A DNA stretch of 64,000 nucleotides from Blasia pusilla (GCA_050084515.1 CM114271.1:43834001-43898000); one strand, 5' to 3'. Shown: positions 28,560-62,457, counted from the stretch's first letter. Made by a program: numbers and translations. Notes: generated by a model not told the origin, from the sequence alone.

Positions 28560-30520
28560 CTGTTAGGGTGTTAGATCTCTTTGGAGGGATTAGCACCGGA
28601 TAAGCTGCAGTATTGCAGGCGGGCATACGGGTGCATTAGTACCTTTATGTGGAGAGAGATGAGATTGCGCGGCGAGTATCATTATGTCACATAACAAGAT
28701 TGATCCAAAGGTATCTTGAGTTGTTGCCGGTATCTATAGTACGGGGATATCAACATACACTACCCGCCGCGCGACATCTCTTTGGTGGGGGCACAAGATC
28801 TGGATAGAGTTAGCACCATTAATTTGGTGATTGTTGGATGGCCATGTCACGGTCATTCATCAGCTGGCCGAGGGTTTGGATTGCAGGATCCGAGGTCAAG
28901 GATATTTTGGGAGATGCTGCGAGTAGTATGACACTTGCAGGAGAGTCAGACATGTTCTCCGGCATACATTTTGGAGAACGTGCCGTTGTTGGGAGACAAT
29001 CGTGCACGTGTGATGACGAGTGTGCATCAGGTGAGGTCCTGGTTGGGACCTGCTGTGTTGTTAGATACAGCGTGAGTTGGATCACGCGCCCATTATCCAC
29101 AACTGTGGTGGATGAACTTCATACCATCAGAGGTACTGAGTCAAGCATACGATGTCCAGAAAGCACCACATATGTCGTGCGCCTACTCTCCTTGAACGTC
29201 AATCTCTAGTATTAAGGAAGCGTACGTTCAGTTGGACACGCTCTCATTGCCGACCTGCACCCAAACACGCACTCTCATTAGTCAGCTTTGGGTCAGTCAC
29301 TCATCCAACCCACCGAGTATTCTACTCAGCGTCTCATCAAGCTCAACCCTCCTTGCTTTCTAGGTTCCAAACACGGCAAGTCCTGCAAGACTTGGAACAG
29401 ACTTTCTGGTTAGTCCAGGAACCTAAAACGGCACTTACGCGCCTGGCGGTCCCAAGTGTCCAATGGACCTTGTGCGAGTTCCTAGCCGAGACCCAAGTAA
29501 TTGAGTTGCAGGTTGGAATCCAAGAGGGATGTCTAAAATCGCCTCACTAGACTTGGTTCAAGTTTTCAAGCCCAACTCCAAACTCTCGATCCGTTCCATG
29601 CCCTTGAGCCGCCCCGTGGCGCCCAAAGTGGGGTTTGAGTCCCAAACACCCTTGGAGACCTTCCCCCTTACTAGTACTTTGGGAGATCTCCAAACACCCC
29701 CTACCTTTGGAAAAAGATGGTCGAGCCCTTCATTGTGGCCCTCAACCTGATTCTACTTACAGTCGTTTTTGGGTTGTTTCTCAGCCGCTGCTTATGCGTT
29801 TTCAGAGATCTTTACTACGTTTGAACTAGCTTTCTATAAGCTTTCCAACGCGTCCTTACTCGTTCCAAACGCATCTTGGCGCTAAAAGTTATGGCCATAA
29901 ATATAGTCGGAAACTCTCAAACGCTGGTGGCGTCCCAAATCCGGATTCCTTCCTTTGGCAACCCACTTCCTAGACTTGACTCCTCTCAAGTCTTGATCCG
30001 CGTTTGGTCCAGGTTTCTCAGTCGCAACCACAACATATGAAACGCGAAGCCTCGCTTGCGTCTCGTCTCTTGTCTCTTCTTCGAGACCACTCCAACGCGC
30101 AAACCATCTTAGCGTGAGCCCGCTAATGTTCCGATGTTCTACTTTGGCACTCGGTTGGTCATGAGGATCGTGACAACATCTCATAGTGGATGCTATTTTA
30201 GGCTCAGGGCGTCGATCTCAGGTGGTGATGCGGGATGATAGACCACCGTTGGCGATGGCCAATTGGGTGGGGGAGTTGAGGGCAGCCTCACCTACGCTGG
30301 TGAGCTTCCCATCATCCCATGCCTTTCATCGGGGAGGGCCACGCATGATTTGGGATGAGGTGACCCGAGCAGTGGAGGAGCCTATTGCAGATGAGCGTGA
30401 GCGCGCCATGGGGTTTGCTATAGGTACTACGGCGGTGCCAGGTATGACTGAGGCATCCCGGAGACAGGTGTTGGGGCAGGCGGTGGACCTCACCTCTCTC
30501 ACATGGATAGTCACCCTAGG
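28560..30520 (+). pseudogene. C5 cytosine methyltransferase domain of copy B, interrupted by a solo LTR
   Basis: VRVLDLFGGISTG, LVIVGWPC, DPRSRIFWEMLRVV, YILENVP, then after the 29173-30175 insertion ERERAMGFAIGTT..RRQVLGQAVD. Confidence 0.88.
29173..30175 (-). mobile_element. ~1-kb solo LTR (family X) inserted in the MTase domain of copy B
   Basis: Reverse-complement homologue of 3264-4295. TSD ACATA/ACATC. Confidence 0.88.
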
Positions 30521-33500
30521 AATGGCTGAGGAGAGACGGATGCGAGTGTCATCCATGCCGTCACGTCCACAAGTTGGACCATTGCCTACAGGGTTTGTAC
30601 AGGCATTGGCGATTGCCGGATGAGGAGAGACAGGCACCCATGGACTTCTTGGGGCGTCGTTCGAGTGGAGAGTGCGAAGGCGGCCAGAGCAATACATGTT
30701 CATTTTTTGGATGTGGAGCATGGGGTAGGAGGTCAGAGTGGAGTGGTTGTTGCGGAGGTGGCTAGAGTTGCTACATAGCAACCAAAGCCGGAGGTTGCGT
30801 CCTCTTCGAGTGAGGTCACGATGAAGACTTGGGAGCTTGTGATAGGTCTCAAGTTGATAGGAGGAGAGCGACGGCAAGTTCATCGGTTTTTGAGAGGGCA
30901 TGTTAGTTGTTTTTCCTTCAATATGAGAGACTTGGGTACGCTGAAGGGTCTCGGTATACGGATTGAGTTGGCTAGTGATACGCCGATCTTTTGTCGACCC
31001 TACAGGTATTCTAATATGGAGCGAGCCTTGATTCAGAGTAGGAGTGAGGAATTTTGGAGGCAAGACTTGTGGAGTTATCACATGGGGAGTATGCATCCGC
31101 CACAGTCATGCCGGCGAAGAAGGATATGTATGGCAATTGGACGGATAGGGGGATGTGTGGAGATTACCGTCCTATCAACCGAAAGACGAGGTCAGACGTA
31201 CTCGGTTAGGGGTCGCCCATTCCAGTTACATACGGATTGGAGCATGTTGGGTCTAGGAGCAGTGCTTACTTATAGAGATGACAAGGAGAGGGAGTTCATT
31301 TTGGATTACGCAAGCCGATCAAACAATATTGCAGAGGCAAAGCACAAGTCCTACAAGGGAAAGTGCTTGGCTGCAGTGTGGGCCGTGGCACAATTTAGGT
31401 GCTATTTATTCGGTAACCCTTTAATACTTATCACTGATCATCAGCCGTTGAGGTGGTTGATGGAGTCCGACAAGCTTACGGAAAAGCTTGCCATGTGGGC
31501 TCTATTACTACAGGAGTATGAGTTTGAGGTGGTTCATAGGCCAGGTCGGGCTGAACTAGGATGCGGATGGATTGAGTCGTAACCCATATCCGAGTCAGAG
31601 AGACCACACAGGAGAGAAGATGGCACGGAGAGAAGATGGTGCCTGGTTGGCATGCATCTGCTTATCTTTGTTGGTTGACTATGGTAGGTCAGCCATAGGT
31701 GATGACTCTAGTGGTGGATTTGGATGATGAGTCTTTGGATCCGAGATCAGTGAGGAGGCGACGGGTGGTCGTGATATCCATGACGACGTGGAGGTTATGG
31801 AGTTCTTGCGCACTAGCGTCATAACGAGCATAGTGAGTGTTAGGGAGCGGGATTGGATCCTACAGAGAGCTAGGAGGTTCAGGTGGGAGGGGACTCATAT
31901 TTTGCGGGTATGGGGAGATGGTAGGATACGAATGGTACCTCATCCTTCCCAACAAGCATGTGTAGTATGACATGCCTATGAGGAGTTGGGGCATTTTGGA
32001 GTAAAGCGTACTTACAGCTTACTCCAAGTTGAGTATTGGTGGCGCGGCATGCATATTGGGGTAGAGCAATTAGTGGCCAGATATTTGGTATGTGAGTGCG
32101 AGTATCCTTCAATGCTCCCACTCCGCACTTACATCCTTTTCCGATTATGGGTTTAGGTTATTGGTGGAGTTTAGACTTTGCAAGACCTTTGCCATTGACG
32201 GGGCATCATCATAGGTACATTTTGGTCATGGTGGAGCATTTCTCCAAGTGGATAGAGTTGGTGGCACTATCGGACAAGGCAAGCAAGGGAACAACTTATG
32301 CGTTTCTAGATCGTGTGCTTAGTCACTTTGGTGCACTGGCGGAGGTATTGACTGACAAGGGTACCAAGTTCAGGGGCGAGTTTCAGGCCTTGTGTGATCA
32401 GGTGCTGATAGATCACCGCACCACGTCCACAGATCATCCTGAGGCGGATGGATTGGCGAAGAAAGTAGTACAGATGGTGAAGAGAGGATTACGTAAGTAT
32501 GGCTTGCAGTGGGGACAGTTGAGGGAGTGAGACCTACAGTTGCCATGGTTGGCTATGGGTTATCGCTTTAGTAGACATGCATCTTTGGCGTCATTTTTAC
32601 CGTACTTTTTGCTCTTCGGGAGAGATCCAGATTTACTTGCAGCTATTCGACGTGACATGGCGGAGGTGTTAGATCTTGATGATCCAGATGTGTGGGTATA
32701 AGCGTGTTCTCATATGGCGGAGATTTTTCGTAGAGTCATGCCTATGGCCTTTGAGAACTTGGCTATTGCTCAACATAGAGATACATTGAGGTACGCGACC
32801 ATTCGTGGAGGAGGTTATCGTCCAAGGATTAGGAGGTTTCATCCTGGAGATTACGTGTATTTACAATAGGCGGCATCCACGACCCTAGATATCACTGCAT
32901 GGCGCACAATCCTACGTGTGCACGAGGTATTACCGACCGAAGTCCTCTTGTTGGAGGGACGGGATGGTATGGTTTGGAAGGATCATGTGCATAATTGTGC
33001 GCCATGTCATCTTCTGAACGTAGACGGGATAGTGGATCCGAGCTTGGTAGTGGTACCTGCAGGCTTGAGGTGTATGTTGTGCGGATCTACGAGGGGTGCA
33101 GCCACCATGTTGGTATGTGATGGTTGTTCTCAGGGGTGGCAAATGTCATGTTTGACCCCCCCCCCTCCTTCTTGATGTAGTTCTCACATGACAATGGATG
33201 TGTCTGAGATGTATATAGGGTAGTAGGTCATGTCAGAGAGATATGATATTGTCTATCTGGAGTTAGGGAGATCCAACTGCCAGCTAGGGGGGCGGTTGTG
33301 TGATCTCCATATATATGTATGAGTTGATTTCTGTACATGTGTGGATCTACCCGTGTGTGGGGAAGATCAGTGTTGTGTGATGTAGATGTGACCAGCGATG
33401 TATGTTGTATAGCGATATGTATGCGCACGACAGTTGTCACATCTGAGTAGCCGATAGGCCGAGATCTATCGTGGATAGGGCGTAAGAGCCAGCGGAGTAT

Positions 33501-36500
33501 CTTGAGTGTAACTTTGTCCCACGGTGTCGGATGAGGTTGAGGATAGGTTCATTGTGTTAGGAAGGTTTTTTCTGATAACTTTCCTGTTGAGGTATTTCAC
33601 AACCGGGTGACTTGTTGACCAGGTCACCCGCCCCTAGTAACCTGTGCATGTAGGTTACCAAGAGGATAGCTTTTTTTAGGGGAAGAGCCTTTTGGCTCTT
33701 CCCAACCCTATATAAGGGAGGAAGATGGCTTTCCCAAGCCATCATTCTCATGTTGGGCCATTGGAGCACCCGTCTTGTATGTGTGTGAGATAGGACTAGG
33801 GTTTTAGCATCTAGGTTCCTTGATAGCGTAGGATGGACAAGGCTCGATATGTCGATGTAGATTGAGGAGTGGAGTTTTAGGCTGGGTGTGCTATTTTTAT
33901 TACTCTTTAATTTTGTTGGTGATCTCTATGTATATGTATGAGTTGATTTTTGTACATGTGTGGATCTACCAGTATGTGGGGAAGATCGGTGTTGTGTGGT
34001 GTAGATGTGACCAGGGATGTATGTTGTGTAGCGATATATATGCGCACGACAACCTTTCTACCTAGTGGGAGTGAGGTGAATGACCATGTGTTATTCAACC
34101 TCATAGATTCAAGCTCTTGTTCAATTTCATCCTTACAGTGAAATGCTTGCTAGCCAAAGAGAGCTTCTTTATAGGTCTTAGGTTCTTTAATATGGACATG
34201 CTTCTCTCATTGACTCAATAATCCATGAGTAAACTTCTCCTTCTCTAGATTCCTAGGGAGTGACTCTTAATGGGCTACATCATATTTCTGCAATAGACTT
34301 GAAACCCTTTTACATCTTCTTGTTCCAACACTTGCTTATGTTGGATTTTTATTGTTGGACTCTATTGAACAATTTTTGGCTTCATCTAAACTTGTTTCAG
34401 TACAACATCAAGAAATGTGTTATTTTTTGGAATCATAATAACATTCGTACTCGTGCTTGGAGAAGAAGGAATTAGTGCAAAAGCTTTACATCCAAAACTT
34501 TTAATGTGATTAAGAACTAGAGGGTCTTTGTGCCAAATCTCATAAGACGTTTTATGACCCTCCTCAACCCTTTTTGGTGCTCACGTTGGAAATATGTTTT
34601 GGAAGTTTTTTGCTCTTACTATCAATTCTCTATGCCTATAAGCCTTTCCAAGACTTCATTGTTCTAGCATTACAAGTATACTACAAGTCGAAGTTTTACT
34701 TTTCCTCTAAGTTACTCCATTATGTTATGGAGTGCGGGGGATTGGAAATTGAAATCGGTGGAAAGATATTCTCCTCCATTATCACATCTTATCAAATTCT
34801 ATTTTTTCTCCCTCACTGGTTGTCTACTAGAGTTCTTATAATAGAAACTTATGAAATACTTTGGATTTCTGCTTTAAAAGATACTTAAAAAAATCATCTA
34901 TGAAAGTTAAGAAATATCTTGCTCTGCTATATGCACATGTGTTTAAGAGTCCACAAACATCATAATGTACTAAGCCAAGACCATCTTCAGCCCTCTTACC
35001 ACCATCTTTGGGGAATTTTTCCCTTACTTGCTTTAATTGGATGGATGCGGTGCAAATAGGAAAGTCATCAATGTCTACTCCCTTGTTTTTGAAATGCTAT
35101 GAGTCTGTCTTGGCTGATGTAGTAGAGTTTCTCATGTCATAATCCATCATTAGTTGTTATAGGGAGAACAATGACGTCCTTGCATGTTGATTTTTTGCTT
35201 GATTGCTAAGGTGTTATGGATTCACCTAATATATACAACTTGTTCTTTGATCTACGAATTGCTATTTTTACTTCAACTTTGTTGTTGAAGGTATAACACG
35301 ATTCTTGATTGTGATGTGTCCTTTTACTTGATCAAATTGATCCACTAAGAATTAATTCCTCTTTAGACTACAAACAAACAACACATTCTGGGATAATAGT
35401 TTATACTCCATTCAACAACGTACTTGATGCACACCGATTGCATTCCTTGAATAAACAAGGTTGTTTCATCTCCCACATACACCATTGATCGCTTATTTAT
35501 ATAACTAGCTTGAAACCTGGTAAATGTGTTGAGGTCATGAGCCATATGTTGAGTAGCTCCTACATCCTCATACCAAGTTATATCTGGAGTACTCAAGAAA
35601 ATTAGGGTTGTTTCATAGACTATATAGCCCTAGACTCTTACTAGAGTCTACCTCTATAGCTTTGGACTTAGCTAGAGAGGCAGAGTTATAGTAAGTAAGG
35701 CAATAAAAACAACATATATCTGTAAGGAATGTGATATGCAACGTAGAGAGATGACAATATCTCTTTAAAGACCTGGGGCCTCTAGATTGTGCCCTTCCTA
35801 GAATAGGATCTTATCGTACACAAAGCAAACGAAATTCATGTCCAAAAGTATTGAGTCACTAACAAGTGACATCTGTCACTGACACATTTGACACATATGT
35901 TGTGAGTCAACAGAATGACGTACCTTGCAAACACATTTGTGTGTCAATTGCAAGCTCAGTGCTAGTCGTCATAGTTACAGTGACAAAACTGTTGTTCATA
36001 CTTGCAATTTTTTTTGTTTTGCGGGAGGGGGAGGGTGTGAAGTCAGAATGGAGTCATACAAAGTGGATAGACATTAATTGGCAGTCGCAACATACTAGCA
36101 AAGTAGTTTCTCTTGGCCAAAATGGACTCAAAACGGAGGCGTGTTAATACCTCAATCCCTTATTGTGAAAAGCCTCTAGAGATGAAGAATGGGCCCATAG
36201 GTTGGTGAAAAGGAAAATAAGGATGATTCATTGGTAAATGAGATACCGACACTAGTCAAAGGAAGATCCACTTGCTATTAGAAGGAAATTAGAAGGAACC
36301 ACTTTAGATAAGGGTATATGAAGCTATTCTTTCCATATTATGCTTATCCTTCAATATATCAAAGAGGATGAGAGGTGTTAAGAAACATTTCTACCTTGGG
36401 TTTCCTTAGAAGACGTCTCAATGAATGGGCAAGTATGGTAATAATTATTGTGGTGTAAGAGCGTGTGTTAGATGGCTCATCCGTGACTAAGAAATATAGA

Positions 36501-47832: not shown

Positions 47833-47932
<100 letters not shown>

Positions 47933-49670: not shown

Positions 49671-49688
49671 AACCTTGCTCTGATACCA
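49671..49688 (-). promoter_or_regulatory. Primer binding site for initiator tRNA-Met
   Basis: TGGTATCAGAGCAAGGTT on the minus strand, 1 nt after the 5' LTR. Confidence 0.92.
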
Positions 49689-51796
49689 TTGTAACTCTCC
49701 AACTCACGGAACCACTCTAGAGTTGCTCAAAGGTAGAATGCCCTCAAGGCCTCTCCTCTTCCTTTATATACTTAGAGATAGGTACAATAAAGATAAATTA
49801 ACTCTACCTATCCTTATGCCACATGTCCTATTCTCATAATATGAGAGGATCTTCTTTGGACTCTAATGTCCTAACCTCATCTTCCTCAACCTCATCCTTA
49901 TCTTCCTTTTCACCAACCTATGGCCCCATTCTCATCTTTATCTCATGTATCTTGTATTTTCTCTATTTGATTGATTCTTTCCCATTTATGCGCTTCATGT
50001 CATAGATTCTAACTTAACTATGACTAACAAAGGATGGTTACACATCATTAAAGCTATATGATGTGATGGTAGGGACTATAGTGTTGAATCTCCTTGGGTT
50101 CATCCTTGACGTTTTGGAGGAAACGGTTGGCTATTGGCCACGATGGCAATCAAGTGATAGTTCAATGAGCCAACTACCCATTTGATTTATTGGGCGCAGT
50201 GGTGGTCCATGACGAGATAACGTGACCATATTGGAAACATTCAATAGTAGTATTAGATAATCAAGAGAGTTTTTGGAGGGGAACGCTCATGCCGAGGATA
50301 TCCCTATAGAGATACAAATCATGGTGGGTGTTTCTTCCCATGGTGCCAATACCTCGTCATCATTGTAGGGTACCAATGTTCATTTGTAGGGAAGTGCACA
50401 TGAGCTTATTAGGTAGGGGTGGAGCCATACCTTTGTGCTAGAGTAGAAAAAGTCATGTGATAGTTGCGCGTATCGAGTAGTGATCTTAGAAAAACTCCAA
50501 TTCCATATGATTTGAAAATTTGGAGGTTGCCTTCCTTCATAGAGTCAAACTTGAACTATATCCCTAATTTTGAGAGAAAAATCTTACACATACCAGGTCC
50601 CAAAAATAGTTTCAAGCTCAACATATAGACCATATGATGAAAAAGGAGCTTAATATTTTTCAAGAAAAATTTCTTGGTCTTTTTTAGACAAAATTTTGTA
50701 GGATATCCTTTTTCATGGCATTATGCTATACCTAAAATTTTCAAAGTAAATTACCATAGAGGTCAGCTCAAAAAATTCATAAGAGAATTTAAAATGTGAG
50801 CTACTAGAAATAGAAATAATTTTGTAGTCCAAAGAATCATACAAAATCCTCGCAAATTATTGGATTTATGAGCCAAAAAATATGTTTTAGGGGTGAGGGA
50901 ATCTAAGTGCAACTTTTGTGAATCACTAAGTCTTAGAATCATACGCTAGTGGGGATCTGAGAGACAAGTTGTGATTTTAGTTCAAAAGGAGGATAAACCT
51001 TTGTGATAAGAACCAAGGCAAAAACTTAACTAGCTCTCTAAGGCAAGCGTCTAGTCAAGGACTAGTGGTTAGGGAGTCAACATAAACGATAGTGCCATGA
51101 GACAAGTGACAAAATGCAACTGGCAACAAGACCAATCACAAGATGGAAATGCCAAGAGGTAATATGGATAGTTAGCCATGAGACATATGAAATAAGAGAT
51201 AAGAGGTCAAGAGAAATATTGATAGTTAAGATATGGCAAGGATGCCCATGAGACTCTACAAAGTCACCTTAGTTCTAAACTAGCCAAATGTGGGGAGTTG
51301 GGAGTTGTCAACGATGTTTGGGTCGAGGGCGACAAATAAAGGCGCAAAGTTGATACTTGGAAGGGGGAGGAGGCCTAAAGAATCTCTTTAGTACCTTCTA
51401 ATTTGTTGCTTGTGCAAAGCATAGAACTATTATGAAATTAAAAATGAAGAAAAGAAATCTTCCCTTTCCTCCTCCTTTCACTCGCCCATCCCTTCCTCCT
51501 CTCCCCTCCCCTCTTTCTTCCTCCCCTTAACTTAACTCCCTCCCTTAAAATTTCAATAGAGAAATCCTTACGAGACAGACCTAGAGCTAGGACAAGGCAA
51601 GTATCAACAATAGGAGGGCCACTTCTACAAACCCCTCCTCTATTAATTGTATAGATAGGGGGGGAGGGAGGAAACTCTCCCTCTCTACCCTATGACTCCT
51701 TGGATCAAGAGTTGATCACATTTTTTGTTTGTTTGTGTTTCAAGTTATGAGCTCATAAACCTTTGGATACACCTTGAGAAATTAGCTATTGTTCTA

Positions 51797-54700
51797 TGTC
51801 GTGCGAATCCACATCGTTGACATACCATACTCACATACATACATAACATAGACGAGAGCATACACAAACACAAGTGTACCACAACTGAAATCCGTGAAAG
51901 ATCTACTGTCATAAAACACAAATAGAATCACATACAATCGAGCCAAACCCACTCCACGATGGGAGAATCCAGGTCGAAGCTTGCGGGAACCATCATAGCC
52001 AAGAGCTCTACTCACTACCAAGGCTAACTCCCAACGCAATAGGCTCAACTCAAAGAACTAACTTTTCTTTGAGTGCACTCCATACTATATCTTCCAACCT
52101 AAGAGCGGGCCCTACTGGAAAAGTCACCCTCAACTGAGTAACCCCCAACCTTATGTATGAAACCGCATCTCTACCTAGACACTACGGCCCTACATGAGGT
52201 ATGGCCTCTACTAGCACACTATACTCTACGACATAATCCGTATGGTCATGACAATTGTCGTGCGAATCCACATCGTCATACAATATAGATTGCTGACATA
52301 CCATATTCACATACATACATACATAAAATATACGAGAGCATACACAAACACAAGTGTACCACAACTCGGCCCCCTAAGTGACGGTTAGGTCCCTCTAACT
52401 CCCAGGTAGCCCTATACATCTACTACATGCTATACATCTTCTTGGGTGCACGAATCAGAAGGCCGGGTGCTAGGTTGCCCCATCGTTAGTCTCCTATGTG
52501 TAATCCATATCACGCAAAGATCAAGTCATCTACCTCTCCTAAGTACATCGAGGACAAACCCACCTTCCAATAGGAACAACATCCATACGTGGAGTCAAAC
52601 ACATCATGTGCCAACCCCTAGAACACCGATCACACACCAACATACGGGCTGCGTTACCAGCAAACCCACACAACATGCACCTCAAGCTAGCACGTATCAT
52701 GGCTAAGCTTGGGTCAAGAGTACCATTCACATTTGAAAGATGACATGGTGCACAATTACGCACGTGGTCCTTCCAAACAACTCCATCACGACCCTCGAAC
52801 ATGAGAACTCCAGAAGCTAACATCTCGTGCACTCGTAAAATAGTGCGGCCTGCCGTCACATCCAATATTGTCCATGCAATCTGCTGCAAATAGACATAGT
52901 CCCCCACATGGAACCTACGAATCGATGGTCGATAACCTCCACCCCGAATGGTTGCATACCGCAAAGTATCCCTGTGTTGAGCAATGGCAAGATTCTCAAA
53001 GGCTGTTGGCATAACTCTACGAAAGAGCTCTGCCTGCTGATAACACACTCTCATCCACATCTCTGGGTCATCAAGGTTCACCACCTCACTAGACTTCCGA
53101 CGAATTGCTGCGGGCAAGTCTGGATCTTGGCCGTATAACTGAAAATAAGGTGAAAAGGAAGCCAAGGATGCTTGGCGATCGAACCTATACCCCATGGCAA
53201 ACCATGGCAAATCGAATATCCCAATCTCCAAGATGCGCGTCAGAGGCCATACTTGCGCAATGCCCTCTTCGCCGTCCTGAACCACACGCCAGCCAAACCA
53301 TCCGCCTGGATGATCTCGAGACGTGGTCCGATGATCAATCAACGCCTTGTCACACAAGACCTGAAACTCACCCTAAAACTCTGTACCCTGGTCGGTCAGC
53401 ACTTCAGCTGGTGCACCAAAATGACTAAGCACTCTATCAAGAAACGCATACGCCGTTCCCTCACATGCCTTGTCAGGTAATGCCACCAACTCAATCCACT
53501 TGGATAAGTGCTCCATCATGACCAACACATATCGATGATTTCGTACAGTCAACAGTAACGGTCTCGCAAAGTCCACACTCCAACGATAACCCAACCCCAT
53601 AATAGCCAAGGGGTGTAATTGTGGTGTAGGGGCATTGAATGATGCCCCCATCCGGTCACAAACCATACAACGTGACACCAACTGATGCACCTGAGTATGC
53701 ATGCCACGCCACCAATACTGACCAAGGAATAAGCTATACGTACGCTTTATCCCAAAATGTCCCAACTTCTCATGGGCATTTGCACAATTCGCTCTCTCTG
53801 AGCCAAATACGGCACTACTCGTACTCTACCATCCCCCCACACACGGAGAATATGTGTTCCCTCCAATCGATACCTCTTAGCACGTTGAAGAACACGGTCT
53901 CGCTCCTTGGCACTCACTATGCCTGGCACCCTACTGGTCCGTAGGAACTCCAACACCAACGCATCATCATGAATATCACGCTGATCCGTACCACCATCTC
54001 TAACCTTAGGATCTGAAGGCTAGCCATCTACCCTCTGACTAGAGTAAGATGTCATGTGGTCCTCCATACTAGAGTCCCCTAACCAACATAAAAAGGCGGA
54101 TGCATGCCAACCTCGCACCATCTCCTCATCAACCTCGCCATGCCATCTAGCCCCAGTTGCATCTTCTTGGCTAGTACATGGGTTCCTACTCAACCCATCA
54201 GCATCAAGGTTGGAAACTCTAGGTCTATGTACCACTTGCAAGTCATACTTCGTTAAGATAAGAGCCCACCATGCAAGCTTCCCTGTAAGCTTGTCAGACT
54301 CCATCAACCACTTGAGCAGCTGGTGATCAGTAACAAGGGTAAATTGTCTGCCAAACAAGTAACACCTAAAGTGTGCCATAGCCCACACTACTGCCAAGCA
54401 CTCTCCCTCATATGAACTGTAGCGTGACTCTGCTGCATTATTCGAACGACTTGCATAGGCCACCACAAACTCCATGTGCTCATCATCATGTTGTGTCAAC
54501 ACCGCTCCAAGTCCCAACCTACTCCAATCAATGTGTAACTGAAATGGGCGCCCTCTGATAGGTCTCCTCAAGATAGGCGCCGCCACCAATTGGGCCTTGA
54601 GCTCCACAAAAGCTCTCTCCTAATCATCTCCTCAGTGCCACTCTTGATCTGATTTCAGCAATTAGTTCAAAGGCTTTGCCATAGCACTAAATCCCTTCAC

Positions 54701-57700
54701 ATACCTCTGATAGTAGTTCGCCAATCCCATGAATGCCCGAACTCTGCTCACATCTACCGGACGCAGAATAAGTGCAATAGCCTCCACCTTTGCTTGCTGA
54801 ACTCCCAAACCACCTAGATAGATCACATGACCCAAGTGCTCAACATCCTCATGGAAGAACTTACACTTCCTGGATGCAAACGTAGACCATGAGCTTTCAA
54901 CCGCTCAAACATAATCTGCAAATGTATCTGATGCTCCTCCACCGTGTTACTGAATACCAAGATATCATCAATGTAACACCGAACAAAATCCAACCCTGCT
55001 AGGATCCTGTCCATCACTCTTTGAAACTCGGCAGGTACATTCTTCAACCCAAAGGGTCAGAATTTCCACTGGTACAAACAATCCTTGCCATGAGAGTTGA
55101 CACCCCAAAATGCTGTCTTGGCCTTGTCACTCGCCCGAATCGGCAATTGATGGTATCCTGCCCGAAGATCCAAAGTACTGAAAATCTTTGCCTGTCCCAC
55201 CACATCAAAGATCTCCTCAGGTGTAGGCATGGCATACATATTGGCCTTCGTTTGCCGATTCATAGGAAGGTAATCTCCACACATCCGCCTATCCGTGTAG
55301 TTGCCATGCATATCCTTTTTAGCAGGCATGACAGTGGCTGATGCATACTCTCTATGCAACAACTCCACTAATCCACCCTCCAAAAGGTCCAACGTGCTAC
55401 TCTGAATCAGGTCCCTCTCCATATCACTATATCGGTAGGGACGACGGAAGATTGGCGTATCACTAGCCAAATCAATCCGTATACCGAGTCCAACCAAAGC
55501 ACCCAACTCCTTCATGCTAAAGGCAAAACAACTCCTATAAGCACGTAGGAACTGTGTTAAGCGTCGTTTCTCACCACTCGTAAGCTTGGGCCCAAGTAAT
55601 GGCTCCCAAGTCTCCTCCACTGGCACACTAGAGGGAGAGGATGATGCCATTGGCTGCTATGCAACCCCCTCACAAGATGGTACACCCTTAGCTACACCAT
55701 CATCTGAGCAAATAATTCCTCCACCAGCATGAGCAACCAACTCCACATGCCCAGCCATAACATCTCATTTACTCCAAGGATGCAAAATACTACTTTCCTC
55801 GGCCCCAGCCGATGCCTCTACCATCTCGGTAGCCATCGAACTCATTACAAGGGGTGGAAGACCCACAAACATAGTCCGAAGTCGACGCTGCTCGGCCATA
55901 CCAAGACTCAAAATCCAAGTCAAACAATTCAGGTCCATGGCCTAACCCAACACATGACGTCGTGAAGCCTTAGAAATGGAAGCAACCGCTATCACGCCAG
56001 TAGCAAATCCCATTGCACGCTCTCTCTCATCAGCGTTAGGCTCCACCAACTGTCGCACATGAGAATTCCAAACAAGCCCGGGACCACCTTCCTATAGGCA
56101 TGTGACGAGGGAAAACTCATAAATTTGGGTAGTGCCATCCTAGGCTGGCCCACACAGTTCACCACTGCCATGGGTGACCGATCAATAACCCTCACCACTT
56201 GAGAAAGTCGCCCAGTATCCAAGATACTATCCACTGTAAGGCAAGGATCCTGCTGCAGTGCATCATATGCTCGACGTAGAACCTCCCTAGGCAAAAAGTT
56301 TGTCCACCACAAACGTGGACGATGTGCACGCGAGCCAACTCGCGCTGCATCCAACAACACCGCTGGTCCAATCCAAGACCGCACCTCATGAACACTCGCC
56401 ATCATCCGGGTCCAAGTGTCACCCAACAATGGAACATTCTCTAGAATGTAAGCTGGAGCATGTGCCTGATGAACCCGAAGATGTTGTAACACCCGTAACA
56501 TCTCCCAAAACAATCGAGACCTAGGGTCGTGTAATCCCTCATCACGACTAACACGTGTATGATCCTGACATGGCCATCCAGCAATCACCAAATCCACAAG
56601 ACCAACCCTCTCAAGGTCCTCCGCCCCCAACAATGCAATGTGTGACGGCAAAGCACGTTGGTACCCACAAATAGCTGATGGCGGCAACAACTCAGGATAT
56701 CTCCGCATCCACTGACCAATATGTCGGGATGAGACTCTCTGGGCCGTTTCATCTCATTCCACATACACGTTTCTCCGCATAGGAATATCGGCCTGCAACA
56801 CTGCAGCCAAACCAGTGCTAATCCCACCAAAGAGATGTAACACACAAATGCCCTCCGGCGGATACTGCCATACAATGGGTGTAGTATCCAAAGGGGATAA
56901 CCCAACTGGACCAGAAGTAGGAGTCCGCCATGGGGCCTCCTCTTCCTCGTGAGGTATAACAACCTCACACCAAGCCTCCTGCACCAGGCGATCAGCCTCC
57001 TGCCGTAGTGCACCGCCTGAACTCCAAAGTGGCACATCCAACGATGAGGATGCCATTGCTGCAAAACTAGGGACCTCCTCTACCTCCTCATGCACAGGAG
57101 AATCCATAGCATAAACATTACCCTCCAAAAAGTCTCTTGGCCAAGTGACTACTCCACTAAAACCAGCCACAGATGCTAACACTGTTGGGGAAGAACCTCC
57201 TGGTCGAGCCCCATAAATAAATCTCACAGGAACTTGGCTCATACGTCCATCACCGGACTACCAACCAGATCTATAAGATGCTGTCTCAGTCCAGTAATCC
57301 ATCTGAAAACCCATCGGGTACAATACTGCTCCTCCAACTAGTACATCATACGACTCGGATGATGTGACCACTACAGGTACTCCCAACCGGGAGCTATCAG
57401 TCGCATGATCTGGTCTCAACTGTACAGAGAACTTCTCCCGTGTCATGAATTGAGACCTATCATTGGATCCTCCAAGTGATGTTTGAATCTAGAATGGGCA
57501 AGGCTCAAGCTCTCACCTCCGAATACCCAAACCAATACATGCCGCTTTTCCCAACATCAAAGGTTGGGCACCCGAGTTTAACAAGACTCTATCTGGTCTA
57601 TACACCTGTCCTGTAGGACTCACCAATCGGAATATCCCACTCCGGTTGTCCAACATACATACACCAGGTGTAAGCCTCTCATGATCAATGGCTAGCCGGG

Positions 57701-60700
57701 CTGGTAATGCATCCATCTTTGTCGCTGTTGCCTGCCAAGTAGCATTGGTACTCAATGCTATACCTAACATAGAGGGTTGCTCCACTGCAACACCCTCATC
57801 CACCTCAGCTTGTGTAGCAGTAACACCCCCACGTTCCCACAACGTGGATGCTAGCTGAAATACAAGAGCTAAGTCAACTCCTAAAGCCATCAGCTCCGTG
57901 GCCGAAAACAATGGAGATCCCAACACTGAAGTTGCCATCCGCAATATTGCACTCGATGCTGCATTCGTGTCTACTACACGCAATGTAGATGCCTCAGTCC
58001 CCACTGTCGGCTCAATAGGCTACGTAGGAACCATGGATGGAGTCCTAAGCACCTCAGACAACAAGAATGACTGGGAAAGCCTAGCCTGCCTCCCAGCCTC
58101 ACCCCTCTGTGGGTCCAACTCCAGAGTAGCACCACGTGGCTTTGACGCTCGAGTGGCTCCTCTCGTAACTGCAGCTGATGCCTCAACCTGTGCTGCACTT
58201 GCCATATAAGAGAGATCATACCCTCCATAAGAGGTGGAAGCCCCTACTCCCAAACCTGATCTAAGCTGGATACTAGCCATAGTAGCCAACTTTTGCTCCA
58301 ATTGCTCAATCCTGGCAGCCATAGCTGACTCTGTCGTAGTGGTAGGGGTAGCCACTGTAGGCTCTCCAACCACTGGTCCACCTCTACCATCCCTACCACC
58401 TCTACCACCTCGGCCTCTCGGAGCTACTCTACCACGGCCGCGGCCTGATCTCAACTCTGGATGAAGATCAAAGCAACGCTCTCGAGGATGAGCTCGTCTC
58501 CCGCAATGATCACACTGAGTTGGGCCGGACTGAGGCCCGTCCTCCAAAGTCCATCTCCCATCCTCTTGGGGACAAAACTTCCTAACATGATTACCTCCAT
58601 ATGTCCAACATGACTATCCTTGCTGCGGGGCAGCAAATGAAGGCAATGGTCTCTACGCAAGTGTCCCTCTAGGACCTGACTGAGGTCGTGTGTATCCCCC
58701 ACGACTCCCACTACTACTACAACACTGTGAGATGGGCTGCTGAACACGAGAAGTAGTAGTTGTATCCCTACTTGATGCGGATGTCACCACTCTCTCCTTC
58801 ACCATGTTAAGCTCAATTTTCTCAAATAGAGCAAACACATAAGTCAATGTGGGTGAACCATCACTCATAAGAGTAGCATCACGTACCCTGCGGCGCAACT
58901 CTCTATCCAAGATCCCATACCAAAACTGGATTGCCTGAGCCCCGTCACACCCTGGGTAACTCAAATCAAGCGTCGCATACGAGTGTATGCCTCACGAAGA
59001 CTCTCACCAGTCTTTCGCTCAAATTCGTGAAGACTCCTCAACTTCTCTGTCTTCACTCCCTGATAGTTCTTCTTCAACCTCTTGAAGAACTCTGCAACTG
59101 GGTTGAACGATCGTGGGGCACTAGTACCTCCATTGGTATCCCCACTCCGGCTCGTACTCGTACCACTCAACGTCCGGTTGGTTGGCATAGTAAGAGCACT
59201 ACTACCAATACCACCATGGGTCATAGACACATAGCTTGGAGACCAATATTGTCTCCACGCCTCAATCTTAGCAACATGGTCCTTCCTAAACTCATGGTAA
59301 GCATCCATGGGTGGTCCCTCCAAGTGCTGAAACAACCCCTTCCAAGCCAAGAAGGATGTAAACAACGTGGCATTCCGCAACATCTGCATATCACACCACG
59401 TATTAAACTCCTGCATGAAGTCCTCCAACTCAATGGTGCCCACTACACCGAGTATTGTCGTGGGCCCTTCATGGCCGCATATATCCCGTCCATGTCCCAA
59501 ATCAATGGAGCTGCAACACTCGATAACAACGTAGAAGACTCGGTGTTTGGAACACCCTCGTCCTCCTCTTCATCAACCGTCGGAAGTGGAAAAGGTAGCC
59601 GAGACCTCAATCCAATCCGTGTGAAACCACCACTGTCCGCACCACGTTCCCCAACCAGACCACCAGACAGCTCCGTGATGACCAACGCCGATGCCGCACC
59701 ACCACAAATTACCACCACTAAGTAACCAAGTGACGTCGATGTCGTTGTACTATTCTAGCTCTACTAGCTATGGGTGTAGGCAACCTAACCTGTCAGCACC
59801 ACAAGAAGCCTCCCACGGTCTACTCGTCATCACTCCAGCCTCACTACCGGTAGCACACAGGAGTAATACTACTCTGGAAATCAGCGTTAACCCTAACAAT
59901 GGGCGCGCAAGCAAGAAGCAACGATGGAGGAGATCCAAACACAGAAGTCCAACAACAATCCTCCAATCGCAAATGGAACTCAAGGTAACACAATCCACCA
60001 AACGTGGCGCCCCCTGAATCCACAAAACCCACCATACAATTCTAACGCAATAGCTACTCCGCCGCGGGTCGATGACATGCTAATGGGACTTGCAGCACCT
60101 GAAAATATCACCTGCATGGAGAGGCTACACCGTACTATGCGCTAGAGGTCCATCAACCAAAAAACTTGAGATGCATAAAGCGCCTAACACATCTCCGAAT
60201 AACACCAAATGAGCTACACCAGTGTGTACACTAGCATAGTTAAGAACTCAGCAGTTAAGCTCTAGGAAGAATAGCCCAAATATGGGTGACCAGTTATGCA
60301 ACACTCAAATCAAAAATCCTACAAAAACTGTCTCACGCCCAAGCAAGCAAGCAAGCTTGCTTGCTTGCTCCTTGCTCCTTACTCCGCCTCTCACGCCCAC
60401 TTGCCCCGAGCTACCACCAGTTGCCTCGGAGCCTCAAAACGCCGAGACATGCCCCGTTCGCCATGCTTCGCTATGGAGAGAGGCCCAACCAGGGCGCCCC
60501 CAACGGGATAGGCATCTCCAACAACGAATGAGTCACCAACCAACCAGCCCCTCCGATCCGCTGTCCGCCATAGCCAGACCTTGAGCTAGTCCGCAAAATT
60601 TTGATTAGCAATTACTGCACAAATCCTCAACCAAAATTGAATCTGTTTCAACCAGAGTTCAATTGACCACCATAGCTATCTCTCCACAAAAAATCAGCTA

Positions 60701-61554
60701 CAACCAAGCTCTGTACTCCGAGCTAAAAATCAGACAAACTTGTTGTCCATACACCTCCAGAATCGCATATCCGACAGCGCTTCTGCCCAAATTCATGCAC
60801 GCAGAAATCCGCAACGCTCCACACACTCGAGCAGATAGCTTCACATGAGATCACAATACAAGTAGCAATAGGAACCTCTCACCTGATTTGGATGAACTTC
60901 AACAGAGCTTCCGCACTCCAAGCTCTCCACATCTGAAAACGGTTGAACACGAACCAGAATCTTCAATCCTTGATAACTTCCAACTCCCTTGACAAAATCC
61001 GGCGATCTAAAGCGCATTGGAAAGCTCTCAGCAAGGCGCTTCTTTCCCAACCAACCACATACCAGATTCCCACCTCCAACATAGGCCACAAGCCACGAAC
61101 ATCCACGGCTGAGTACACAATCAGCCCTAACCAGATCCTACTGATCCACTATCGAAGCTACCATCGATCTACTCTAGTTCTTTGAGTGAAATCCGTGAAA
61201 GACCTACTGTCATAAAACACAAATAGAATCACATACAATCGAGCCAGATCCACTCCACGATGGGAGAATCCAGGTCGAAGCTTGCGGGAACCACCATAGC
61301 CAAGAGCTCTACTCACTACCAAGGCTAACTCCCAACGCAACAAGCTCAACTCAAAGAACTAACTGTTCTTTGAGTGCACTCCATACTATATCCTCCAACC
61401 TAAGAGCGGGCCCTATTGGAAAAGTCACCCTCAATTGAGTAATCCCCAACCCTATGTATGAAACCGCATCTCTACCTACACACTACGGCCCTACATAAGG
61501 TATTGCCTCTACTAGCACCCTATACTCTACGACATAATCCGTATGGTCATGACA
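51797..61554 (-). mobile_element. Split-direct-repeat DNMT/PHD gypsy-type retrotransposon (copy C, most complete, same subfamily as A)
   Basis: A1 61187-61554, PPT 52366-52377, B1 52256-52365, A2 51886-52253, B2 51797-51885. gag 58020-59500 with CCHC knuckles and RGG, protease ~57250-57600, MTase 55900-56860, RT with YIDD 54823-55650, RNase H 54020-54607, integrase+PHD 52539-53765. About 16 differences in 368 bp between A1 and A2 by manual count. Confidence 0.95.
55900..56860 (-). pseudogene. C5 cytosine DNA methyltransferase domain of copy C (DNMT3-like motif order)
   Basis: ICVLHLFGGISTGLAAVLQA..YVE; DLVIAGWPCQD; DPRSRLFWEMLRVL; YILENVP; DAARVGSRAHRPRLWWTN; motif IX/X region after frameshifts. 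Confidence 0.92.
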
Positions 61555-62457
61555 ACTCCGTCCTAGGTGATTGACATCACGAGAGAGGCTGAAGGTCAGA
61601 GGACAAGTTTCCTTACGGGAAGAATATGCACCTCAGGAGACTCGGTACTTACGCCAATGTGACTTGGTTTCGATCAGGTCTCCATGTGACTAGGTCCCCA
61701 TGTTTGCACACTCACTTCTCCAATCAAAGTGCGTGGCCAAGAAGATTTATATGATATGAGGAGGGTTTCTCAAACCCCTTCCTCTTTTAATCATATAGAT
61801 ATATATGGCTCTTCCTAGTTTTGCATGAGTGTAGAAGTGATGAACTAATTTAACCCTTTATTATTGAATTTAATTTACCCAGTTATTAATCTCTTACATC
61901 AAGCGAGCGATCTCCAATTGTTTCTCTCTCGTAACTAGCGATGTAACGAAATTCGTTAAGGTTTATTAATTATACAGCTTTCACGGACTACTTTTGAAGC
62001 TTCGGGGCTGCCAGTTGGCAGCAAGCCAGCCTCAGAAAGAGGGCAGCGATCCACATACCGTCAATCCCATTTGCACTTATTCTTCTACATGGTGCTTGGA
62101 TTTCAATTCTGCGTCGCGTTTGAAATTTCTCACGCGGAAGTTATGTGGCGTACGTTACTTTCGTGCTCGAGAGTTTTGAACTCACCTGCCTTGGAATTGA
62201 ACTTGCTCTGGAAGAAAAATGGAAGTGGCATCGGAACTCTTTACGGGCTTCAGTGAGCCTGAATCTTTTGAGACGAGACGGTTGAGATCGGTGTGAACCA
62301 TACTCAAAATTTGGCGCGGGCTCATGAGAGTTTGCAGCTGAGACTGAGACTACAGAGGTTTTATTGTGGGCGTCCCGGAAAGCGGCCGTGTGTGGTACTG
62401 AAAGAACACCGCATTTTCTTAAATTTTCCCCACAATTTGTCGACAAGTTTCATTGCA

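Follow-up and report, generated by a model that had tools for sequence, protein, structure and literature searches.

The 64,000-nucleotide stretch of DNA analysed here (the window) contains members of a single Ty3/gypsy family, three insertions and one fragment, in which a DNA methyltransferase (DNMT) domain is embedded in the polyprotein. Copy 3, the best-preserved DNMT-bearing copy, occupies 51797..61555 on the minus strand; self-blastn, repeat alignment and end sequences give it the arrangement A1-internal-B1-A2-B2, and in tblastn it is collinear with the related proteins P0112, P0116 and P0143. Copy 1, at 2964..12856 on the minus strand, shares a subfamily with copy 3 and is flanked by a GATG target-site duplication, its A2 repeat being interrupted at 3264-4296 by an insertion of about 1 kb. 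A second subfamily is represented by copy 2, at 24191..34051 on the plus strand, which has both B1 and B2, A repeats that are 89.3% identical, and a degraded 5' end. A fourth element of this family is represented by a fragment at 50042..50459 on the plus strand, which corresponds to sequence immediately preceding the DNMT. The polyprotein order of the family is gag(CCHC)-protease-DNMT-RT-RNaseH-integrase-PHD, and the window's three copies are old, inactivated Ty3/gypsy LTR retrotransposon insertions.

Coding regions of the best-preserved copy

All coding parts of copy 3 lie on the minus strand. The gag region with its CCHC zinc knuckle (58020..59569) was located by tblastn with residues 1-610 of P0112; the CCHC is visible in relatives, and the Retrotrans_gag match in copy 3 is weak, under the Pfam cut-off. 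The protease region (57513..58019) is an open reading frame (ORF) whose active site now reads LLNSGAQP (about 57570-57590), a decayed form of the LLDSGAQP with which it aligns in relatives. Pfam detected no protease in this window ORF, even at E<=1, and places Asp_protease_2 at the matching position in P0334, P0312, P0277, P0285 and P0397. Reverse transcriptase (RT; 54868..55656) was recognized by tblastn with P0116 and P0126, its RVT_1 match being weak and likewise under the cut-off. RNase H (54020..54619; RT_RNaseH, PF17917, E 8.4e-34) is followed by an integrase (52716..53825) with an H2C2 zinc finger (PF17921, E 9.7e-13) and an rve DDE core (PF00665, E 2.3e-9), and by a PHD finger at the integrase C-terminus (52542..52715; PF00628, E 6.6e-10). 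The order RT-RNaseH-integrase, with a DDE integrase, as established by Pfam and tblastn, is that of Ty3/gypsy elements. No Phage_integrase match, the sign of a tyrosine recombinase, occurred among the ORFs scanned, a set that left out some small ORFs, and the only integration domains that Pfam finds in intact relatives are rve and Integrase_H2C2.

The nearest solved PHD fingers in the PDB are those of CHD4, KMT2C/D, DPF2/3, ATXR5, KDM5A/B, PHF21A, UHRF1 and AIRE, most of which read unmodified H3K4 or H3R2. Chromoviruses, Ty3/gypsy elements whose integrase bears a chromodomain, resemble the window family in carrying a histone-tail reader at the C-terminus of a DDE integrase; the window family differs in that the reader is a PHD finger and that a DNA methyltransferase is also aboard.

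Terminal repeats and mode of integration

In copy 3 the 5' LTR-like repeat, A1 (61187..61555, minus strand), runs from TG to CA and is 95.7% identical to the 3' LTR-like repeat, A2 (51886..52253, minus strand), both being delimited by self-blastn, repeat alignment and end sequences. Directly upstream of A2 lies the short repeat B1 (52256..52365, minus strand), which ends in ...GCACGACA and is followed by 2 nt (AT) and then by A2, and directly downstream of A2 a second B, B2 (51797..51885, minus strand), forms the 3' end of the copy; the homology of copies 1 and 3 in self-blastn runs through B2. The block B1-A2-B2 is present in 3/3 copies and in both subfamilies, with no B after A1. While the A repeats have TG...CA ends and identities of 95.7%, 95.9% and 89.3%, the extra B at the 3' end means that these are not plain LTRs. 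A target-site duplication is found at only one of the three copies, the GATG of copy 1. Together with the rve domain, this duplication supports integration by a DDE integrase as the probable route.

A joint in RNA and DNA reads leading from 52286 to 51811 ('goes back 476') was considered as an LTR-LTR circle junction and rejected, because on one side it involves no more than 75 letters, the exact length of B2, and B1 nearly duplicates B2. A variant of B is present in sister copies, and the B1/B2 duplication accounts for the joint.

A methyltransferase domain between protease and reverse transcriptase

A first-pass annotation of the same DNA had proposed a retrotransposon-encoded C5 DNA methyltransferase at 55900-56860. 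The domain is real, and its computed span on the minus strand, 56879-55804, lies near the proposed one; in copy 3 the C5 cytosine methyltransferase domain (PF00145) thus covers 55804..56879, with its extent set against the intact Marchantia relative P0112. It is situated inside a Ty3/gypsy pol, as judged from the Pfam matches to RT_RNaseH, Integrase_H2C2, rve and PHD and from the terminal repeats. The position between protease and RT that the annotation had given is borne out by tblastn over the window and by the order CCHC-PR-DNMT-RT-RNaseH-INT in P0334, P0183 and P0391, all intact relatives, and collinear tblastn matches confirm a common pol position in all three copies and both subfamilies. 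A Pfam search for DNA_methylase, which the annotation had put forward as a check, returned a match above the cut-off on the window ORF at 55992-56753 of the minus strand (E 2.3e-8; score 34.3 bits, cut-off 22; profile positions 62-156 of 324), and relatives score up to 58 bits.

Motifs I, IV, VI, VIII, IX and X had been reported in linear order, and they are seen so in copy 3, with IX and X past a frameshift. (The names I, IV, VI and VIII follow standard C5-methyltransferase naming.) The minus-strand frame at 56754-57257 ends with motif I, LFGGISTG, and the adjoining minus-strand frame at 55992-56753 contains AGWPCQ (IV), ENV (VI) and RPRLWWTN (VIII), while motifs IX (ERERAMGF-like) and X (LG*AMD) come past the frameshift near 56070-56091. 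The GWPCQ wording that had been given for motif IV stands for copy 3 only (AGWPCQ), since copy 1 reads ARCPCQ and copy 2 VGWPCH.

None of the three domains is intact. The DNMT of copy 3 is interrupted by a TGA stop at 56751-56753, by the frameshift just mentioned and by a TAG stop within motif X, a total of two in-frame stops and one frameshift. In copy 1 the domain (about 7742..8825, minus strand) is heavily decayed, with many stops and frame changes, and in copy 2 (28535..30611, plus strand) it is split into 28535-29177 and 30180-30611 by a nested unit of about 1 kb at 29179-30176, with four in-frame stops and one frame change; both domains are collinear with the Marchantia PR-DNMT-RT-RNaseH protein P0116. 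Stops, frameshifts and the insertion leave no open frame for the enzyme in the three window copies. Since all three are broken, they are, judging from their reading frames, incapable of a working enzyme, and this locus makes none.

Relationship to DNMT3

The annotation had likened the domain to DNMT3 rather than to the circularly permuted DRM, and several comparisons agree with this. Searched with phmmer, the window domain finds its best PDB chains in DNMT3B/3A (E 2e-8), followed by HaeIII (4e-3) and DRM2 (0.08). The family profile (profile A2) ranks DNMT3A (1.1e-22), DNMT3B (4e-21) and DNMT3C (9e-21) ahead of DRM (3e-11 to 1e-8), HaeIII (6e-9), HhaI (1e-6) and DNMT2 (1.7e-3), and DNMT1 is absent from its PDB matches at E<=0.01. 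On DNMT3A the profile aligns in three collinear stretches (motif I, motifs IV-VIII and motifs IX-X), and the arginines of motif VIII and the region of motifs IX-X fall on DNA-facing parts of DNMT3A. An AF2 model of the relative P0007 (pLDDT 74.7, pTM 0.80) gave only DNMT3A/3B/3C as top Foldseek matches (E 3.6e-17; target-normalised TM up to 0.80), DNMT3A and 3B leading. The model is poor in the target-recognition region (pLDDT <50 at residues 265-303), so that substrate and sequence context are not readable from it. Taken together, the PDB ranking and the predicted fold support a non-permuted, DNMT3-type, presumably SAM-dependent C5 cytosine methyltransferase domain.

The cellular DNMT3A/3B/3C of animals and the DNMT3 of plants share the linear motif order and are the best match in sequence and fold. 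Unlike them, the window domain is embedded in a polyprotein and is accompanied by no PWWP or ADD domain in a Pfam scan of window ORFs and full polyproteins; it reads GWPCQ instead of GSPCN and LGQAMD instead of LGRSWS, and the target-recognition region of the family is longer and poorly modelled. DRM2 belongs to the same broad Dnmt3-related group, and the family profile finds it at E 1e-8 to 3e-11; it is, however, circularly permuted, and the C-terminal part of its chain aligns with no more of the profile than positions 31-157, whereas the window domain is collinear with DNMT3A.

Distribution of related elements

At E<=1e-30, relatives were collected as 537 cluster representatives. Relatives fall into two clades, each with its own arrangement: type I, PR-DNMT-RT, in streptophytes (Klebsormidium, Closterium, Marchantia, Calypogeia, Sphagnum and the window), and type II, RNaseH-DNMT-INT-PHD, in chlorophytes. 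In trees built from element relatives only, without host DNMT3 or DRM sequences, the split between PR-DNMT-RT and RH-DNMT-INT has an SH-like support of 98 (155 rows) and an SH-aLRT support of 97 (44 rows). Profile, fold and tree were all derived from natural intact relatives, not from the reconstructed consensus that the first-pass annotation had envisaged. The window belongs to a 10-row clade with Marchantia, Calypogeia and Sphagnum (support 100 in the 44-row tree), within which the DNMT domains of Marchantia, Sphagnum and the window are unexpectedly close, at 73-74% identity, and form a trichotomy.

Members from K. nitens and Closterium were recognized by the names of representatives, a protein word search having listed no Klebsormidium. 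The K. nitens protein GAQ93235.1 (P0277) reads CCHC-PR-DNMT, lies on the window's side of the split supported at 97-98, and is 34% identical to copy 3 over 283 residues (E 5e-40); from its species, architecture and description, it is probably one published copy of KnitGypsy-Dnmt3. Many type I ORFs stop soon after the DNMT, giving gag-PR-DNMT proteins of 1230-1430 residues, and annotated Marchantia proteins such as P0112 and P0119 have open gag-PR-DNMT frames with all motifs. Annotated and apparently undiscussed proteins of this kind occur in Marchantia, Calypogeia, Riccia and Sphagnum. In the literature searched we found no description of DNMT-bearing retrotransposons in bryophytes, although such sequences may already figure among the trees and tables that accompany PMC5890265 and PMC12344493.

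Selective constraint on the DNMT

That the methyltransferase is a stable component of the element, as had been proposed, is upheld by two observations. Comparison of copy 3 with copy 2, which represent the two subfamilies, yields dN/dS values of 0.16 over 135 codons and 0.15 over 83 codons, while wrong-frame controls yield 0.77 and 1.22; these ratios are rough, as the inter-subfamily dS of about 1.5 is near saturation. Within the subfamily of copies 1 and 3 dN/dS is neutral, at 0.81 and 1.01. Among relatives with full domains, the catalytic Cys (IV), Glu (VI) and Arg (VIII) are kept together in 37/41 of type I and 193/194 of type II, or 230/235 overall. Conservation was counted by alignment column in place of regular expressions, because many relatives read ENT and GWEC, and the literal 'ENV', found in 93/235, is misleadingly low as a motif count. 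By column, the Phe of motif I is kept in 40/41 type I and 158/194 type II domains, the Cys of motif IV in 40/41 and 194/194, the Glu of motif VI in 41/41 and 194/194, and the first Arg of motif VIII in 38/41 and 193/194. These data show a DNMT that has evidently been under long-term purifying selection across the family. For the family as a whole, neither a missing HMM or structural match, nor a neutral dN/dS, nor a dead catalytic site, the findings that the annotation had named as fatal to its claim, is what we observe.

Transcription and CpG content

Three RNA runs placed 1777, 1549 and 1866 reads on copy 3, with the first mate almost always on the plus strand. Of these, 1746, 1524 and 1837 are only 95-99% alike to copy 3 and so come from sister copies, which are transcribed in sense. 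CpG content bears no footprint of extra self-methylation: the observed/expected ratio is 0.57-0.68 in the DNMT elements, not lower than in their neighbours (0.62 in the adjacent DNMT-less LTR element and 0.50-0.93 in other parts of the window).

Discussion

Retrotransposon-borne DNMT3 genes have been published for dinoflagellates and one charophyte alga (PMC5890265), and the precedent that the first-pass annotation had cited, dinoflagellates and charophyte algae, matches this report, in which the charophyte is Klebsormidium (de Mendoza 2018, PMC5890265). In KnitGypsy-Dnmt3 of Klebsormidium nitens, a Dnmt3-type, non-rearranged DNMT is situated in a gypsy Pol with the A-coding-B-A-B arrangement found in DIRS elements; its Ka/Ks is < 0.2, its copies group with DNMT3 in the published phylogeny, and its acquisition was ascribed to 'the K. 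nitens lineage' (de Mendoza 2018, PMC5890265). The window family is alike in having a DNMT in a gypsy Pol, the A-coding-B-A-B order, purifying selection (0.15 here) and a side of the tree shared with GAQ93235.1. Unlike KnitGypsy-Dnmt3, which is known from a charophyte host, it resides in a bryophyte-like host, its window copies are decayed, and its integrase bears a PHD finger, a word absent from the text of PMC5890265. Domain order, DNMT clade and repeat arrangement together support placing the window family, in all probability, in the same streptophyte lineage as KnitGypsy-Dnmt3. SymbioDIRS-Dnmt3 of Symbiodinium, regarded by its authors as an independent acquisition and shown in yeast to carry out de novo CG methylation (PMC5890265), likewise has a Dnmt3-type DNMT in a retrotransposon Pol and the A-coding-B-A-B order. 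It differs in the DIRS tyrosine recombinase, as opposed to the DDE (rve) integrase and target-site duplication of the window elements.

The type II gypsy elements of green algae (RT-RNaseH-DNMT-INT-PHD; named hosts Haematococcus, Scenedesmus, Chromochloris and Cymbomonas), for which we found no description in the literature searched, share with the window family a homologous DNMT with the idiosyncratic motifs GW(P/E)CQ, RxRxxWTN, ERExxxG(F/Y) and LGxxxDLN as well as an integrase-PHD tail. In contrast to the window family, their DNMT follows RNase H and precedes the integrase, instead of standing between protease and RT; they form a separate clade (support 97-98), and 121/194 have Glu where the PC motif has Pro. 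The split between the two types and the conserved PHD partner suggest that the family may be much older and wider than the two published cases.

We think it rather likely that the window holds dead gypsy copies of the KnitGypsy-Dnmt3 lineage with a DNMT3-type domain, and that live copies elsewhere use this domain to methylate their own cDNA or insertion; methylation of the element's own cDNA or integration site would be the likeliest role of the enzyme. In live copies the DNMT would be translated with Gag-Pol, and the protease would either free it or leave it fused. The enzyme might then accompany the reverse-transcription or integration complex and methylate cytosines in the new cDNA, or in the newly inserted copy and the DNA around it. 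Through its PHD finger the integrase could tether the complex to histone H3 tails, probably ones unmethylated at K4, so that PHD and DNMT would form a DNMT3-like reader-plus-writer pair owned by the element.

A real and selected enzyme might instead have a substrate other than the element's DNA, such as RNA (genomic RNA or a tRNA primer, in the manner of DNMT2), or might serve to bind nucleic acid while particles assemble or reverse transcription proceeds. The isolated DNMT domain of KnitGypsy-Dnmt3 gave no DNA methylation in yeast, and RNA methylation has been raised for a LINE-borne DNMT, although the authors consider the yeast failure inconclusive, human DNMT3B having failed too (de Mendoza 2018, PMC5890265). 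The lack of extra CpG depletion agrees with this reading, as do the many type I ORFs that end after the DNMT, which would mean a Gag-like stoichiometry in particles. This substrate change nevertheless seems unlikely to us, given that DNMT3A/3B match the family far better than DNMT2 does (1.1e-22 against 1.7e-3) and that the motif VIII arginines and motifs IX-X align with the DNA-facing parts of DNMT3A. 

We would give little credence to an anti-silencing role, in which the domain serves as a decoy for host DNMT3 partners or chromatin sites, or lays down a 'gene-body-like' CG pattern that diverts non-CG silencing. DNMT3 proteins are oligomeric, and DNMT3A/3L and 3A/3B3 assemblies head the list of structural matches; moreover, silent copies in K. 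nitens carry CHG and CHH methylation and active gene bodies CG methylation (PMC5890265), so that a CG-only writer could mimic genes. A pure decoy, however, has no need of the Cys, Glu and Arg kept in 230/235 full domains, and the window copies have decayed as any silenced element does. It is also quite improbable that the DNMT is a relic in this host, one that no longer matters after entry by descent or horizontal transfer and whose signature of selection was left in a previous host. None of the three copies is alive, copies of one subfamily diverge neutrally, and the 73-74% identity among Marchantia, Sphagnum and the window, with its trichotomy, leaves room for transfer. Yet a dN/dS of 0.15 at a dS of about 1.5 within one window implies that selection acted during the diversification of the bryophyte clade, Marchantia P0112 and P0119 keep open gag-PR-DNMT frames with all motifs, and transcripts arise from sister copies.

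Returning to self-directed methylation, we can also sketch a broader proposal, which we put forward tentatively and regard as doubtful. One ancient PHD-integrase gypsy lineage would extend across green plants, with a DNMT3-derived DNMT in two Pol positions (PR-DNMT-RT in streptophytes, RNaseH-DNMT-INT in chlorophytes) and replication through a DIRS-like A-B-A-B junction combined with a DDE integrase; it would have lasted into land plants and still be transcribed in bryophytes, and the PHD finger as reader of unmodified H3K4 and the DNMT as writer would constitute a transposon-owned module for de novo methylation of its cDNA or of the site where it lands. If this were true, part of the 5mC over such elements would be written by the elements and not by the host.

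Conclusions

As far as the literature searched extends, this kind of DNMT-bearing gypsy element was known before only from a freshwater green alga; the host here is bryophyte-like. The window, along with the proteins of Marchantia, Calypogeia, Riccia and Sphagnum, indicates that the lineage reached bryophytes. The points that these elements open for study are the activity and substrate of the enzyme, the role of the PHD finger, and DDE integration of an element with an A-B-A-B arrangement. Marchantia is genetically tractable, which would make the role of these enzymes testable in a land plant.

A DNMT3-type methyltransferase within a Ty3/gypsy element

The first-pass annotation had placed a retrotransposon-borne C5 DNA methyltransferase (DNMT) at 55900-56860, between protease (PR) and reverse transcriptase (RT) and at a common pol position in three element copies, and both the domain and its setting are borne out. 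The interval lies on the minus strand within a 9.8-kb element (copy 3), where two adjoining frames with one TGA (56751-56753) between them translate, when joined, as ...LFGGISTG...YVE*DE...AGWPCQD...ILENVPL...RPRLWWTN...; beyond a frameshift at about 56070-56091, reading resumes with ...EPNADERERAMGF... and ...LG*AMDLNCLTW... (motifs IX and X, interrupted by a TAG stop). Compared with P0112, an intact Marchantia relative, the domain extends over 56879-55804 (minus strand). The 253-residue open reading frame (ORF) of copy 3 itself matches PF00145 (E 2.3e-8, 34.3 bits; Pfam cut-off 22 bits), and the solved-structure sequences closest to the window domain are DNMT3B and DNMT3A (E 2e-8), followed by HaeIII (4e-3) and DRM2 (0.08).

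With full-length relatives as tblastn queries, the order gag(CCHC)-PR-DNMT-RT-RNaseH-INT-PHD is collinear in all three copies, located at 2964-12856 (copy 1, minus strand), 24191-34051 (copy 2, plus strand) and 51797-61555 (copy 3, minus strand). A Pfam run on nine ORFs of copy 3 recovered RT_RNaseH (8.4e-34), Integrase_H2C2 (9.7e-13), rve (2.3e-9) and a C-terminal PHD finger (6.6e-10), together with weak RVT_1 and Retrotrans_gag matches under the Pfam cut-off; three of the nine, the protease region among them, had no Pfam match. The window protease is visible only as LLNSGAQP, which reads LLDSGAQP in relatives, and intact relatives have a Pfam aspartyl-protease match at the corresponding place.

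The kind of METHYLTRANSFERASE was assessed by searching PDB sequences with a profile (alignment A2) built from 11 natural relatives. DNMT3A (E 1.1e-22), DNMT3B (4e-21) and DNMT3C (9e-21) ranked ahead of DRM (3e-11 to 1e-8), HaeIII (6e-9), HhaI (1e-6) and DNMT2 (1.7e-3). DNMT3A aligns with the family profile in three collinear stretches, namely motif I, motifs IV-VIII and motifs IX-X, whereas the DRM match is confined to the portion at DRM's own C-terminus. An AlphaFold2 model of the relative P0007 (mean pLDDT 74.7, pTM 0.80; pLDDT below 50 at residues 265-303, the presumed target-recognition stretch) finds its best Foldseek matches in the PDB in DNMT3A, 3B and 3C (E 3.6e-17, target-normalised TM up to 0.80). 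The profile ranking, the collinear DNMT3A stretches and the Foldseek matches identify the predicted domain as DNMT3-type and not permuted, in agreement with the initial reading of its motifs.

Decayed copies of a conserved domain

The DNMT domain is broken in all three copies: two in-frame stops plus one frameshift interrupt it in copy 3; copy 2 combines four stops and one frame change with a nested unit, about 1 kb long (29179-30176); and in copy 1 stops and frame changes are numerous. Only copy 3 keeps motif IV intact. The two LTR-like repeats (repeat A) of each copy are 95.7% (copy 3), 95.9% (copy 1) and 89.3% (copy 2) identical, and dN/dS between copies 3 and 1, which belong to one subfamily, is 0.81 and 1.01, values that indicate neutral decay within the subfamily. 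Judged by their sequences, the window copies are old, dead insertions.

Between subfamilies (copy 3 versus copy 2), the DNMT dN/dS is 0.16 (135 codons) and 0.15 (83 codons), ratios that are rough because dS is near saturation, against 0.77 and 1.22 in wrong-frame controls on the identical DNA in two frames. Across 235 full-length DNMT domains (41 type I, with PR-DNMT-RT order, and 194 type II, with RNaseH-DNMT-INT-PHD order), the catalytic motif IV Cys, the motif VI Glu and the first motif VIII Arg occur together in 37 of the 41 and 193 of the 194. Glu takes the place of Pro in the catalytic 'PC' dipeptide (giving GWEC) in 121/194 algal type II and 7/41 type I domains, and ENV becomes ENT in 107/194 type II domains, with the Cys and Glu themselves retained in these variants. 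A regular-expression motif count was discarded as too low, since GWEC and ENT are common among relatives. Together, the between-subfamily ratios and the retained catalytic trio uphold the earlier suggestion that the DNMT is a lasting component of the family.

Relatives and two architectures

Protein searches returned 111 relatives of similar length and 37 longer ones, a profile search of proteins returned 124 longer relatives, and an exhaustive profile search gave 537 cluster representatives at E<=1e-30. Named relatives include the liverworts Marchantia polymorpha, Calypogeia fissa and Riccia sorocarpa, several Sphagnum species, Klebsormidium nitens (GAQ93235.1), two Closterium strains, and the algae Scenedesmus, Haematococcus, Chromochloris and Cymbomonas. 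Among 366 DNMT-matching proteins, 118 have the order RT-DNMT-INT-PHD and 71 are partial forms compatible with it, 14 have DNMT-RT(-INT), and 163 show the DNMT as sole domain.

The trees cover DNMT domains of the window and its relatives. FastTree separated 155 DNMT domains into 24 and 131 rows (SH-like support 98); the 24 comprise every DNMT-before-RT row (5), the window and gag-PR-DNMT proteins, and the 131 comprise every RT-then-DNMT row (98) and every DNMT-then-INT row (16). A quick IQ-TREE tree of 44 rows, with the two short rows P0035 and P0128 left out, gave the same two-way split (support 97). On the window's side of this tree, K. nitens is followed by a Closterium clade and then a 19-row clade; inside the latter, ten rows including the window, Marchantia, Calypogeia and Sphagnum form a group with support 100, in which window, Sphagnum and Marchantia form a trichotomy. 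Every streptophyte named above belongs to type I, and every chlorophyte named belongs to type II. GAQ93235.1 has a CCHC-PR-DNMT architecture and shares 34% identity with copy 3 across 283 residues (E 5e-40).

The DNMT domains of Sphagnum (a moss), Marchantia (a liverwort) and the window are 73-74% identical, which is close for hosts long separated; either slow evolution or transfer between bryophytes may account for this identity.

Terminal repeats and related units

Repeat A is LTR-like (TG...CA); it measures 448 nt in copy 2 and 369 nt in each of the other two, and lies at the 5' end (A1) and near the 3' end (A2) of every copy. Because a repeat B of about 90-140 nt, terminating in GCACGACA, stands on both sides of the 3' A, the layout is A1-internal-B1-A2-B2 in all three copies and both subfamilies, with a conserved non-B leader after A1 and two nucleotides between the end of B1 and the start of A2. 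A GATG duplication surrounds copy 1 exactly outside the A1 start and B2 end; no target-site duplication was seen in the flanks of copy 3, and copy 2 has a degraded 5' end. Where B1 meets A2, the sequence resembles the end of the element joined to its start; a junction-templated intermediate may be how such ends are regenerated in an element whose integrase is of the DDE type.

In the figure legends of de Mendoza 2018 (PMC5890265), 'A-coding region-B-A-B' is described as typical of DIRS elements, and KnitGypsy-Dnmt3 as combining a DIRS-type repeat structure with gypsy domain content. The A-B-A-B layout is common to KnitGypsy-Dnmt3 and the window element and forms a second, independent link between them.

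A candidate for the primer-binding site, 23 nt downstream of A1 and not immediately adjacent to it, is TGGTAGCTTCGA. The A1-to-gag stretch of about 1.6 kb (59570-61186, minus strand) holds no ORF of at least 150 aa and is about 89% alike between copies 1 and 3. Three units of about 1 kb, 70-86% alike, lie within A2 of copy 1 (3264-4296, plus strand), the DNMT of copy 2 (29179-30176, minus strand) and a DNMT-less LTR element (48212-49216, plus strand). They begin TGTC(A/G)CG... and finish ...GCGCACGACA, termini that are those of the DNMT element (A start, B end), and their flanks repeat 5 bp perfectly (ATTTT) at one copy and match at 4/5 positions at the two others. They probably belong to a related family, either as solo 'A-B' remnants or as non-autonomous relatives.

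The DNMT-less element (43059-50042; LTRs 43059-43410 and 49690-50042, 96.3% identical) resembles gypsy RT/RNaseH and integrase at about 43805-45951 of the minus strand. Its LTR adjoins a 400-bp fragment of a fourth DNMT-family element (50042-50459, plus strand), 67% alike to copy 2 and spanning the stretch between protease and DNMT; no continuation was found at the far side of the LTR element. Of 10 non-TE ORFs scanned, just one gives a clear host-gene signal, a DnaJ (J-domain) match at 39606-40166 (plus strand; PF00226, E 1.4e-13) whose look-alikes in Atlas are streptophyte J-domain proteins. The host is probably a bryophyte.

Expression

Three RNA-seq runs bearing the species label of the best-matching DNA run, of each of which 6-12% was read, yielded 1777, 1549 and 1866 reads distributed over the full length of copy 3, with a depth of about 12-42 over the DNMT bins. 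The first mate is on the plus strand in nearly all of them, which in most stranded libraries means RNA of the minus strand; if the library is of this type, the RNA is the element's sense strand. Only 31, 25 and 29 reads per run are at least 99% alike to copy 3, so the transcripts come from sister copies and not from this locus. At 53011-54016, 14-32 reads per run jump 1004 bases with 9 other letters (AAGTTCTCA) inserted; the jump does not look like an intron and shows that transcribed sister copies have a replaced or deleted stretch spanning the RNase H-integrase boundary.

Discussion

In live copies, the DNMT would be produced as part of Gag-Pol; the ORF stops soon past the DNMT in many type I relatives and runs as a single ORF through integrase in others, and with such production and ORF structure the enzyme could enter the particle or integration complex. 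Retention of the SAM-binding and catalytic residues argues that catalysis is what selection keeps. The likeliest substrate would be the element's own new DNA or its landing site, following de Mendoza 2018 (PMC5890265). Against this reading stand that paper's yeast test of the K. nitens domain, which yielded no methylation and which its authors call inconclusive, and the CpG ratios. CpG observed/expected is 0.57-0.68 in the DNMT elements, a depletion no greater than that of the neighbouring DNMT-less LTR element (0.62) or elsewhere in the window (0.50-0.93).

The PHD finger of the integrase resembles those of CHD4, KMT2C/D, DPF2/3, ATXR5, KDM5A/B, PHF21A, UHRF1 and AIRE. Most of these PHD fingers recognise histone H3 whose tail lacks methylation at K4 or R2, and the ADD domain of cellular DNMT3 reads that chromatin state as well. 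Given this likeness and shared preference, the element may own both a reader (PHD) and a writer (DNMT).

Later papers mention Gypsy-DNMT3 of 'streptophytes', and an opinion paper holds transposon-encoded methylases to be absent from land plants 'such as tracheophytes'. The Marchantia DNMT3 papers searched do not mention DNMT-bearing elements, and no description of such elements in bryophytes was found in the accessible literature, whose supplements may hold more. The kind of element is already known from KnitGypsy-Dnmt3 (PMC5890265), of which the window element is a further case, in a land-plant host; the difference between streptophytes and chlorophytes in the place of the DNMT within Pol, and its conserved PHD partner, may be new observations.
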